Translations under genes and position numbers: made by a program | The notes under the pieces: generated by a model | The model's input: only the letters and a program-made list of their open reading frames with translations | Databases searched by the model: none | Told to the model about the DNA's origin: nothing | DNA from: Seison nebaliae | Lineage: Eukaryota | Direction: 5' to 3' | Assembly (NCBI GenBank): GCA_023231475.1 | Contig: JALJEE010000349.1 | Span: 62,001-126,000 of the forward strand | Length of the DNA: 64,000 nucleotides | Shown: positions 2,685 to 11,600 of the stretch, piece by piece | How the letters are laid out: every line of letters starts with the position of its first letter | How positions within the stretch are numbered: position 1 is the stretch's first letter

Positions 2685-5600
2685 ATGTCTTTGATTGTTA
2701 AAATCATTAGTGCGACTAATGTCCCTAATAAGGAAAAATTTGGCCAACCGGACCCATTCGTTTACATTGAGTTTCAAGGAATCAAGAAAAAAACTAGTGT
2801 TAAAAAGGAAGAACTCAATCCCGTGTGGGATGAGGTTAATTTTTTGGTAACTAACGAATAAGTTGCATATATACATATTGATTTTTCAAGGATATTAAAT
2901 TCGATTTGAAAGGAATTCCTTTACAAACAAATAATCAACTTGATATTCATTTGAAAGACTATGAACGATTTGGTGCAAATAAGTTGGAAATAATTTGAAC
3001 AATATTATTGTCAGTTAAAATCTCCAACCATTAGATTACTTGGCAAATGTACAGTTCCATTACGTGATGTAATCGAGCAAGCGTCATCTCAATATGAATT
3101 GGAATTGAAAGATCCTTCCGATACTCCATTACCGGTATAAAATTTATTCGAATTTTCAAATATTTAATGTTTCATTAGCAATCGAAATTGACTATAAAAT
3201 TAATATATGAAGCACCGGATGTCGATACAGAGGGTGGCGATATCGGATCAGGTTTATTTTACATTTTACCATCTTCTTCCGTAAGTGAATTAATTATTAT
3301 TAATTAATTAATTTCCTTATTAATTAATAAAAAAATTGGAATGAAAATCAAAAATCTCCCAATTTTCTATGTGAGTAAACATTCTATCCATTTCTGGTGA
3401 AATCGTTTTATAATTTTTTTTGAAATATAGTCAAAAAATTCGTTAAATAATTCGTATATTATTAATTGCATTTCAATTATTGAAGATAAAAAAAAATATT
3501 ATGGAAAAAATAAACGAAATGTTAACTATGGTGAAACAGCATTGAACCCGGTGAATCCTGAGGGAGGTCTAATGGATGAGCAACCTGATTCAGATGACGA
3601 CGGAGGTAATCGTTCAAAAGACATGGGTGATGTTCTCACTAGTCGAAGAAAGGAACGATCCAGTAAACAACAGGACTTTCAAGTTTTCAACCAATTCGTT
3701 TAATGGAAGAATCGTTATGATATTAATATCAATTACTGATTTAGATTCGAATAAAAATTATCGAAGCTCGACAACTAGAAGGAGGAAATATTCATCCAGT
3801 TTGTCGTGTCAAATGTCACAATCAGTCAAGGCAAACACGAATTAAACGGTCAACATCTAATCCGATATGGAGTGAAATATTTTTCTTCAACTTCTCCCAA
3901 ATATCGGAACAAGAATTATTTGATGAATTTCTCGAATTTGAAGTTTCCCACAATAAGTGAATAATTCTCTTAATTAATTGTTATTCAATAAAAGGTATAT
4001 AATTCACGGCAATTACGATCTGATGCATATATCGGTGGATTTAAATGTGATATTGGTTATGTAGCGGATGAACCGAAACATGCCGTTATTAGGAAATGGT
4101 TATTGTTAAGTAATTCTGATGATGCAATAGGAGGAGTGAAAGGTTACCTTAAAGCAACTGTGGTAATTTTGGAAGCTGATATGGAACCACCAGTTATTCT
4201 ATTAAATTGTCACTAAAATAACAAATCCTCCTCTAGGTGGGAGCAACGGCTGATGTTGTAGATGATGATACTGATGATATTGAATCCAATCTCTTAAAAC
4301 CAGCAGGAATGACATTAAAACCGGCTCAATTTATATTAAGATTATTTAAAGCTGAAGATCTGCCAAGAAGTTATTTTTTTTAAATTTCATTGAACATTCT
4401 AAACTTCGGTTTTAGTGGACTCCGAAGTGTTTGAAGGAGTAAAGAAATTATTCAGTAAAAGCGATGATAAAAAGGAATTAGTGGATCCATACGTTGTGAT
4501 GACATTCGCTGGGAAATCAGTTAAATTCATTTTGAATAACTATAAAAATTTTAATGTATTCTTCAAATAAAGATTCAATCGAAGATCGCTTATTGCGATG
4601 CAAATCCTGAATTTAATCAAGAATTAAAATTGGGATTGAAAGTATTTTAATAATTCTATTGCTTGTATTTCAGTTGTAATATTCTTCAAAAAATAGTTTC
4701 CGTCAATGTGTGAGAAGATTCGATTGCAAATAAAAGATTGGTTAGTAACGGATTGAAGAGACTTTTTAAAGTTGAAATAAAATTTATTAAAAATTAAAAG
4801 GGATAGATATTCTGCTGATGATGAGATTGCTACAGATTTTTTGCGAATTTCGCAAATATCTGAACTAAAGCAGAATGGTAAAAAATTCTAAAAACTTATC
4901 TTATGATTTGCTAAAACATTTTTTCTATATCTTTTCTCATATCTGTTCTGGTCTTTGCTCTTTGATTAACGTTGTTATTTTTATTATTTTCAGGGATCGT
5001 TTGTCTGCTAATGACAACGTTGCTGTTACATATCTGAAATTGCCACAAATATCCTCGAATGGATATGATGATGATGCAGGTGAATTATGATTTTATCTTT
5101 TATACTTCTGCTATATGAGTTTCATTGTTAAAACTGCATTTTTCAATTATTCGAATTTATTCAAGGATTCTTACCAACATTTGGTCCGTGCTTCATCAAT
5201 CTCTATGGTTCTCCAAGGGAATATTCCGAATTGCCAGATCAATACGATGACATGAATTTAGGAAAGGTTAGGGAGTTTCTTAAAAATTTAGATGAAACCC
5301 TTTTAACAAAATTCTTAAATTCTTCAATAACATTGTCGATTTCATTTTCATTATTATCTAGTACCGAAATACAAGAGAAATTAAAGACAAAATATATTTA
5401 GCGCATGTGATCCATTATTCTCTTTCTCCTCTCTTTTTGCTTCATAATCTTATTACTCATTTTGTGCTAGCTTCCTTATTTAGTGAATTAGTGACTTCTT
5501 TGTAAACACAATTTTCAGATTTATAGTGGATAAAAACGAAAAAATATAGATATACAAAGTGTAACGCACATTAACTATTTCTCGCCTGTGATCTCCATTC

Positions 5601-8600: not shown

Positions 8601-11600
8601 TTGTGGTGAATTACTCGGTTCTGCTGAATTACTTCATGTTAGTTAAATAGTTGTTTAAGGCGATCAGATGAAAATGATCTGTTTGTCAAGTCAGGTACTA
8701 TTTCCCAAGGAATAGAAACTGAAGTAAAGCGTAAGGAATTTGAAAAAAGGATGAATAGTAGGAGTTCCAAGCCATCGATGTCTGGTTAAACATCTACCAT
8801 TTTCATTAGTTGACCACATTAGAATAAATTCTTCTTAATCAGATTTGTTAGAGGTTGACGATAGTTTGAAAGTACGTCCAAGTTTAGCTTCATTCGATAT
8901 GGTTCCCGATGCTATGAATGAAGACAGTAATAATTTTACTTTGTATTATAAGGTAAATTTTCAATTTGACGTAAATTGAATTTCAGCTAATTTATATAAT
9001 TGTAATCGCATCATCTATATGTAAAGCATATCTGCTTATCTCTCTTATATTGGAATAGTATGGAATGTTTACAACAAGGATCGAGAGTCTGTTACAGGCT
9101 CGTCGAAGCTCAATTTTTCGTTCTAGCTCCGGCTTCATAGCTCTTGGTGACTCAGTTGATGTTGAGGAAATGAGTGAATACATAGATCTATCTCGGAAAA
9201 TATCGATTGCTCAGAATGTAAGAAAAAAATCTTCATTATAATCCGATCTTCACTAAAGAATTTTTTCACTTCATTCTTTCTTCTGAACTCTACTGTGGAA
9301 TGTTGTGCTATAAACTATATCAAAAGTATTATTTCCAACTTCTTTGGTTATCGGTGAAGATTTGATTATATCTATTACCTCCGCTAATATTCCTTCTTCT
9401 ATTTTACTTATAATTAATTCTGAATCATTGGTAGAGCGAAGAAAAAGAAAATGAATTACCGAATTTACCACCCAAAAAAGGCAATCTCTATATCGTTCCA
9501 AATACTATCCGGCCTGTTATGAAACGTACTGCAGTTGAAGTTAATGAAAGAATTTTCTTTTCAATTTTTCTCATCAATTTCACATCAATGATTTAAGGTA
9601 CTTTGTTGGGGCGTTAGAAATATGAAGAAATATCAATTGTTGGATATCAAGCAACCAAGTGTCGAATTTGAATGTGGAGGCACAGTTGTTACCAGTGAAC
9701 GTATAAAAAATATGAGACATTCACTAAACTTTAATAAACCCCTCTTATTTTTTGATGTGGTTAGTAAATTGTTTTGGTTGACAATGTAAATAATAATGAA
9801 AATTGAAGATGTTACCTGAGGAGGAGTTATATGCACCACCAATCAATATCAAAGTTTATGATCACCGCATATTCGGAACAAAACCATTGATCGGATCACA
9901 TGTAGTGAAATCAGTTCAAATGTTCCGTGCTGATCCAAACGAAATCAATTTACCTTTGGCACAAATAGAAAGTTATTATTTATAAATCAATTGTCAAAAA
10001 TTTATTTGCGACAGATCGAGAAAGTAGTGATGTTATTGTAGACATGGAACCACCTTCGAAACTCAGTCGACCAGTTAGTTATTGTTCGAATAGTAATAAG
10101 TTCAAAATGAGATTAGGAGGAGAAAAAGGTGAGAACATTTAAGCGGTTCTTTGGAGGTGATTCGAAATCGAAATATAAAAAGAAGAAGAATAAAAGTGAA
10201 ATTCTTGCCGAATCTATGAGCAAAAGTAGCTCGGTAAGTCGTTGAAAGTGTTTCTAGGAGAATTATTATTTTTTTGAGTTTCGGGTAGAATTGGTGGAAG
10301 TAGTTTATTCGAGTGACATTTTCATTAATGTGCAAATTCCCCAAACGCTTTTCTTTTGTTAGGCAACGATTGAAGAAGATATTGATTGGTGGTCTAAATT
10401 TTATGCATCGATTGGAGATACGAAAAGATGTGGCACATACGAAGAGAAAGGATATGAGAAAATTAAAGTGTATGATACAACACTGGAAGAATCGGAACAT
10501 TTCAATTATTTGACTGACTTCTGCAACACATTTTCCTTGCGTCGAGGAAAACAGAAAGACAATGAAGAAGATGCATCTGTCGGTGAATTCAAAGTTTATC
10601 CATTTCTCAAATCTCATGTACATTCTTTTTACTATTTTTTTAGGCCTCATTCAAAGTTTATCCTCTGCCACCAGATCCTAATGCGGAAGCGCCACCTCGT
10701 ATCCTCAATAACTTACCTTCAAGTAAACCATCCGAATATCTTGTGAGGATTTACTGTATAAGAGCAATGGATTTACAACCGAAAGATAATTCAGGATTAG
10801 CTGATCCGTATGTTGAATGTCACATCGGGAAACAGACAATAAATAATCGAGATGACTATTGCCCAAATAATTTAAATCCAGAATTTGGTCGAATGTTTGA
10901 ACTCAAAACATTCGTCCCAACTCATAAAGACTTGGAAATTCGAGTCAAAGATTATGACATGTTAACTGGCGATGAAATTATTGGACAAACCACAATCGAT
11001 TTGGAGAACAGAAGTCTAACCAAATTCCGTGCAACTTGTGGATTACCTTTCCAATATTATATTGATGGACCGAATCAAGTTTATTCTTTTTATTTTAGAC
11101 CGAAATATAATTGTAATAAATTTCTCTTTCAGTGGAGGGATAGTAAAACACCCAAAGAAATTCTTATTGATTTATGTAAGAAGTATAAGATCGAAGGACC
11201 CGATTTCATCACCAATGCAAGTGTCCGTGTTGGTGGACATTTGTTTTCTACTTTTGATTTTGGTTAGATTATTTTCTTAACAGTTCATATTAGTAGTTTC
11301 CTTAAAATTTTTTTGAATTTTTCAAACTATTTCCGGATGTTGGTTAATTATTTTTGCTTCGATAATTATAGAACAAGAGAAACGATGTGAAGGAAATAGT
11401 CATGTTTGTCCGGATTCATCACAAAGGTTGTCTTTGTATATGTTACATCGTTTTGGATTAGTACCAGAACATGTGGAAACTCGTCCACTATTTAATCCAT
11501 TACAACCAGGAATTGAACAAGGACGCATGCAATTATTTGTTGACATGTACAAAATAGAGAGTGGTCCTCCGTCAACCGCTTTCAATATTGTTCCAAGAAA

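Follow-up and report, generated by a model that had tools for sequence, protein, structure and literature searches.

Which donor site does the splicing machinery of the marine seisonid rotifer Seison nebaliae prefer, and why do a few exons end on a different one? This question is raised by a type-I ferlin gene in a 64,000-nucleotide (nt) stretch of the genome (assembly GCA_023231475.1, contig JALJEE010000349.1, positions 62,001 to 126,000, forward strand), which we call the window and in which all positions below are counted. Most donors in the window begin with GTT, and the seven donors of the GTRA type (GTAA or GTGA) close exons that are, judged from the sequence, likely to be alternative. 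Our preferred explanation, which we put forward tentatively and at a little under an even chance, is that the machinery has shifted towards reading U at the third base of the intron (+3), which would make a purine at this position a mismatch kept on regulated exons. Regarding the origin of the DNA, one exon in the window, from a bleomycin hydrolase gene, matches an S. nebaliae protein at 100% identity, and a second gene matches another Seison protein model; the species has been reported as two lineages (PMC8351084).

The ferlin model (Table 1) has GT..AG at 37/37 junctions. Of the 28 introns that an aligner placed with nothing but a chiton ferlin as guide, 21 are identical to those of the model; three of the other seven are skip forms of exons 12, 18 and 31, and four lie in poorly conserved parts. 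No annotated or transcript-derived Seison ferlin was found among proteins of 449-2000 amino acids (aa) or the 50% representatives, a length range which the model protein (2047-2214 aa) exceeds. The donor set comprises 72 introns of nine genes: 37 of the ferlin, 27 from eight other genes and eight further ones of a rabphilin-like gene. Most introns outside the ferlin were placed by reading-frame continuity, introns of 5' untranslated regions were left out, and the first intron of a CAMTA-like gene was excluded since two donors fit equally well. Two NCBI Seison models reproduce five of our introns identically, in genes other than ferlin, and contribute an additional 433-nt intron with a GTT donor. 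Early statistics compare the six ferlin GTRA donors with 58 others; in the later set seven GTRA donors stand against 65.

GTT is found at 28 of the 37 ferlin donors (besides three GTAT and six GTRA), at 26 of the 27 donors of the eight other genes and at seven of the eight added rabphilin introns, the eighth being GTAA. In total this gives 61 GTT (~85%), seven GTRA, three GTAT and one GTC, the last in a kinesin intron (41145, +). Identity and position of the nine non-GTT ferlin donors are exactly those given in a preliminary description of this locus: GTAT occurs on ordinary short introns at 3135 (44 nt), 4642 (55 nt) and 12136 (45 nt), and the six GTRA donors are listed in Table 1. The longer introns which that description saw after all six are confirmed at 86-217 nt when adjacent introns are measured, and its upper value of 290 nt fits the interval 4878-5165 (288 nt). 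Thymine occupies +3 in 54/58 non-optional donors, compared with 45% T inside introns (p = 1e-14), and the commonest of these donors, GTTAGT (9/58), is the textbook site changed only at +3. None of the 58 is GTRA, where the base composition of introns would lead one to expect 7.8, and this absence is not due to chance. Six of the seven GTRA donors carry G at -1. An unconventional donor is the majority class in this one window (61/72), as in co-evolved systems of the Entamoeba type. At the other end of the short introns the pyrimidine tract is scant and AAG terminates 11/51; no clear branch-point motif was seen (CTAAY in 4/64 introns). Gene finders trained on GTRAG could mis-model the Seison genome.

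How optional are the exons in front of the GTRA donors? For exons 12 and 13 the answer is given by the frame, which is open with either exon and broken with both or neither. Both exons encode the same conserved stretch, lie in tandem and appear constrained, as expected for a mutually exclusive pair; the predicted optional status of the pair is certain by frame. A second haplotype (runs X2, X4 and X5 from one sample at a depth of ~4, where single contigs below depth 5 are possibly erroneous) retains both exons without listed gaps, and its listed changes are synonymous in 3/3 codons of exon 12 and 3/5 of exon 13. Its exon 13 donor reads GTAATT, a single event at +3 (G to A) that keeps the purine; the exon 12 donor falls outside its coverage. 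Between the haplotypes intron 13 shows 16 listed substitutions and nine listed indels within 86 nt. Steric exclusion of the two exons was rejected because most introns here are shorter than the one that separates them (116 nt). The exon 12 region (4801-4890, +) can form a long hairpin ending just 5' of the donor (z -2.4, 3/200 shuffles; one of five regions folded), and one low-depth contig has an opposite-strand joint there without explanation. Runs X1 and X2 contain no splice joints across the ferlin introns, and the runs covering the locus behave as DNA.

The frame also stays open after removal of exon 18, 24+25, 26 or 31, and all candidate optional exons have an exon-like composition. Skipping exons 24+25, 26 or 31 restores the length of the homologs, and isoform pairs of other animals differ at the same slots: by 30 aa in a chiton and 41 aa in Owenia at the exon 31 slot, and by 14 aa in Owenia at the exon 24-26 slot. 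In vertebrate ferlins, too, length differs at the exon 31 slot, as it does at the exon 13/14 junction. The isoform pairs support the putative optional status of the exon 24-26 and exon 31 slots. The earlier view that all six exons look optional holds, but its description of non-conserved, frame-preserving inserts needs amending for exon 25, whose frame requires exon 24, an insert just as little conserved, and for exon 31, whose slot is also filled in bdelloid ferlins. An alternative AG at 8853 (+) would turn exon 25 into a 99-nt cassette that preserves the frame alone. The predicted microexon 18 has the weakest case: its splice signals are matched in a fraction of shuffles from 0.0005 (strict patterns) to 0.067 (loosest), most homologs have 28 aa at this slot, as has Seison without the microexon (32 with it), and no compared homolog carries the same insert.

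A seventh, predicted GTRA case was found in the rabphilin-like gene after the rule had been set; it fits the rule but is also consistent with a length effect. The 1566-nt exon has no Pfam match, and both the including and the skipping form are open. Of the 11 in-frame GT sites within the final 660 nt of the exon, its donor comes last and lies at the point where the composition becomes intron-like. In an NCBI model the C2-domain half of this gene begins at its own first exon (17926-17494, -); this acceptor can also be reached in frame from the FYVE-type half upstream (18464-17494, -). In the ferlin itself two in-frame candidate last exons (12548-12577 and 12812-12844, +) follow the GTT donor 12483, at the point where an Acropora isoform pair differs. 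Ferlin intron 4 (3252-3539, +), in the first linker, contains GTAAGT (3281), GTGAGT (3371) and two in-frame acceptors (3485, 3539), and further alternative splicing is possible there.

Table 1. Predicted ferlin gene, exons in question and long control introns (positions in the window; a slash marks the exon-intron boundary)
Feature	Position	Strand	Donor	Basis or remark
Type-I ferlin (myoferlin/dysferlin-like)	2685..12844	+		38 exons, 37 introns, median 54 nt
Exon 12, mutually exclusive with exon 13	4801..4877	+	4878 ATG/GTAAAA	Frame test, homology
Exon 13, mutually exclusive with exon 12	4994..5079	+	5080 CAG/GTGAAT	Frame test, second haplotype
Long GTT control, 556-nt intron	5267..5822	+	AAG/GTTAGG	After conserved exon
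Predicted 12-nt microexon 18 (VPFM)	6721..6732	+	6733 ATG/GTAAGC	Splice signals only
Exon 24, non-conserved insert	8691..8784	+	8785 GTT	58-nt intron; counter-case
Exon 25, skippable only together with exon 24	8843..8952	+	8953 AAG/GTAAAT	110 nt
Exon 26, frame-preserving insert	9059..9217	+	9218 AAT/GTAAGA	159 nt
Exon 31, frame-preserving basic insert	10117..10233	+	10234 TCG/GTAAGT	117 nt
Long GTT control, 109-nt intron	11263..11371	+	TTG/GTTAGA	
Predicted rabphilin-like exon, frame-preserving	18465..20030	-	18464 CTG/GTAACG	1566 nt; introns 759 and 971 nt
Long GTT control, predicted 1984-nt kinesin intron	37723..39706	+	AAT/GTTAGT	Reading-frame continuity only

Since all GTRA donors precede long introns (defined as >70 nt), intron length has to be separated from exon type. 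Among long introns, GTRA follows 7/7 optional-looking exons and 0/9 others (Fisher p = 9e-5 by donor), and the association persists when the ferlin cases are counted as four events (p = 0.0014). With the nearer of the two last exons the intron at 12483 measures only 65 nt, and the comparison of six with eight then gives p = 3e-4. None of the 56 short introns begins with GTRA. Length alone is not the explanation because the nine other long introns keep GTT, including 5267-5822 and 37723-39706, which the preliminary description had already pointed out as long introns with this donor. The link of GTRA to optional-looking exons withstands the control for length, and the rabphilin case found later fits it too. 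Several long GTT introns sit immediately upstream of optional exons.

Whether the GTRA donors are strong or weak depends on the yardstick. Alternative exons usually carry weaker splice sites, and the preliminary description had concluded that this rule is inverted here. Scored against the textbook consensus, the six ferlin GTRA donors indeed reach 6.3 of 9, the rest 4.6 (p = 0.0014). On the species' own matrix, built from the 58 other donors, the six are weaker than the rest (p = 0.003; a partly circular comparison). The claimed inversion assumes a canonical U1 and is not supported in the form in which it was made; it lacks proof and probably reflects the choice of standard. At positions other than +3, long GTT introns come closer to the consensus than short GTT introns do (3.57 vs 2.45, p = 0.009), with G at -1 in 5/7 vs 10/47; long Seison introns are better at -1 and +5, and +3T is kept in all the long GTT introns. 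At these other positions the six GTRA donors equal the long GTT introns (3.5, p = 0.94); length therefore explains those positions, and +3 is the specific difference. With a +3T template the scores of 9 are 6.44 for long non-optional, 5.43 for optional and 5.27 for short introns. Masking of the six donors in the RNA by downstream sequence was rejected as they do not differ from other donors in this respect (p = 0.28), and inverted repeats were for this reason treated as chance.

A comparison with relatives gives a direction to the difference. A bdelloid-like ferlin (locus L002, 6000-14025) with 69% identity to Adineta ricciae and 48% to Seison has 36 donors, of which 23 are GTA (16 of them GTAA), mostly on short introns, and 13 are GTT; two calls at its exon 31 slot are unreliable. 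At 16 intron positions common to both genes, ten are GTA in L002, and Seison has GTT at eight of these and GTAT at two. In ten long-intron animal loci GTT was seen at 18/188 predicted donors, from noisy calls. It is therefore likely from the sequences that GTT is the derived, preferred state in Seison and, judging by the bdelloid-like ferlin, that the ancestor used GTA often; the L002 ferlin is possibly an intermediate stage of the shift to GTT.

Under the preferred explanation constitutive donors would have moved from GTA to GTT, the best donor would have become G/GTTAG, and regulated exons would have kept or taken an off-consensus purine at +3, a partly mismatched donor that would permit skipping. 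The main U1 small nuclear RNA (snRNA) would be predicted to carry ACUAAC in place of ACUUAC in its pairing region, or U6 or a protein would read the +3U. As GTRA would now be the weak class, the usual rule would be obeyed in a shifted code and not inverted. An Rfam scan gave no match in the 64-kb window, nor in the 9 of 77 loci that were scanned.

Several points weigh against this explanation. The optional labels were assigned knowing the donors and are thus post hoc and partly circular, and every GTRA case comes from two genes, the ferlin and the rabphilin-like gene. Exon 24 looks optional and yet has a GTT donor, with unused-looking GTAA sites inside it at 8724 and 8731. The exon 31 slot of bdelloid ferlins holds a basic insert, in L002 seemingly continuous with the upstream exon; exon 31 may be constitutive in rotifers. 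The comparison on the own matrix is partly circular: once the six GTRA donors are added to its training set they score from -0.9 to 1.0, where the median is 1.5. The difference between long and optional donors is not significant under either template (p = 0.08-0.10). In 24.9 kb of coding sequence GTAAG occurs six times against 11.5 expected (z -1.7) and GTTAG 13 times against 16.4 (z -0.9), which hints weakly that GTAAG still works efficiently as a donor. Finally, U1 is reported to have stayed canonical in most lineages whose donors are atypical (bioRxiv 10.1101/2022.06.08.495308).

This last point leads to the possible, though not probable, alternative, the main model of the preliminary description, of a single canonical U1, with GTT mini-introns spliced by intron definition and optional exons keeping truly strong donors that depend on exon definition or are prone to skipping. 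The textbook scores of the six donors and the mild under-use of GTAAG in coding sequence agree with it, as do yeasts and Giardia, which retain a canonical U1 (same source), and human cells short of U1-70K, which skip exons with the strongest donors (bioRxiv 2026.09.07.749963). The near-fixed +3T would be left unexplained, even on introns of 433-1984 nt whose other positions are improved, and GTRA in 0/9 non-optional exons with an upstream intron >70 nt speaks against the exon definition invoked in the preliminary description.

Rather unlikely is the existence of two U1 snRNAs, a derived one for housekeeping GTT mini-introns and an ancestral one for GTRA alternative exons, whose ratio would set inclusion; the preliminary description, too, had raised two U1 species. 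The split at +3 is clean (7/7 vs 0/65), and Physarum reportedly has a modified U1 beside the standard one (bioRxiv 10.1101/2022.06.08.495308, cited there as unpublished). The three constitutive GTAT donors and the GTC donor are, however, evidently spliced; mismatches at +3 are thus tolerated, and there is no need for a second U1.

We consider it improbable that the GTRA donors are a historical relic, slowly evolving donors of regulated exons which missed the shift to GTT and whose base has no code of its own. GTA as the likely ancestral state, GTAA in L002 at two of the three Seison GTAT sites, and the age of the intron positions at the exon 24-26 and exon 31 slots, where isoforms of other animals vary, all speak for it, but L002 has no counterpart of the duplicated exons 12/13 or of the microexon, and intron 13 changed fast between the haplotypes. 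Equally improbable is a small-sample or length effect with partly circular labels, in which GTRA would mark a subset of long introns: the restriction to long introns and to two genes, the microexon defined by its own splice sites and the growth of donor strength with intron length in flies and humans (PMC3245539) point that way, and the nine long GTT introns, the exons 12/13 that can never be included together and the rabphilin case found after the rule had been set point away from it.

Elsewhere in the window, the end of an ion-channel gene occupies 1-1140 (+), with a diverged tandem copy immediately upstream of the window, and a broken reverse-transcriptase element (13897-15645, -) has a depth many times that of its flanks. 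An intronless reading frame at 42397-42921 (+) with a basic N-terminal extension is presumably calmodulin-like. A likely neuropeptide precursor (56968-57339, +) contains four similar peptides with Trp-Gly ends beside basic cleavage sites and has no Pfam match.

There are precedents for shifted donors, for donor classes and for an effect of intron length. In Entamoeba GUUUGU donors are matched by a complementary, co-evolved U1 (bioRxiv 10.1101/2022.06.08.495308), and there as in Seison U at +3 displaces the ancestral A as main donor class. Entamoeba has few introns and a strict motif, altered at both +3 and +4, whereas Seison is an intron-rich animal with degenerate positions +4 to +6 and a residual purine class on optional-looking exons. 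Physarum polycephalum provides a precedent for two pairing variants in one genome; the change there is at +4, and the excerpted passages state no link to alternative exons. Known donor classes with a proposed regulatory use are likewise separable, but trade exonic against +4/+5 pairing at ~1:1, whereas those of Seison split at +3 at ~1:9. The rule that relates donor strength to length (PMC3245539) is shared in the better -1 and +5 of long Seison introns, and is departed from as the +3 purine is not restored in nine long non-optional introns. Dysferlin has alternative exons 17 and 40a (PMC4230592), and the length variation of vertebrate ferlins resembles that in Seison; the pair 12/13 differs in being a conserved exon duplicated in tandem, and the inserts show no sequence relationship. 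Exon 40a probably lies at the Seison exon 31 slot, as judged from a bird dysferlin; the human exon 40a motif was not among the proteins compared. In Fritillaria (PMC13326754) the splice signals and the machinery of an animal shifted together, with 95% of introns escaping GT/AG; Seison retains GT..AG. The literature covered, which includes few subscription journals and leaves out supplements that could bear on the point, holds no account that we could find of an intron-rich animal with ~85% GTT donors, and where papers mention Seison and splice sites together, the accessible passages say nothing about its donors.

The pattern is real, and among animals it is unusual. Should the link extend to the whole genome, one base could be enough to predict alternative exons, and if there were two U1 snRNAs, the single +3 base would label regulated exons throughout the genome. 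Seison would be a natural test of whether regulation is what weak donors on alternative exons are selected for, because "weak" and "ancestral consensus" separate here.

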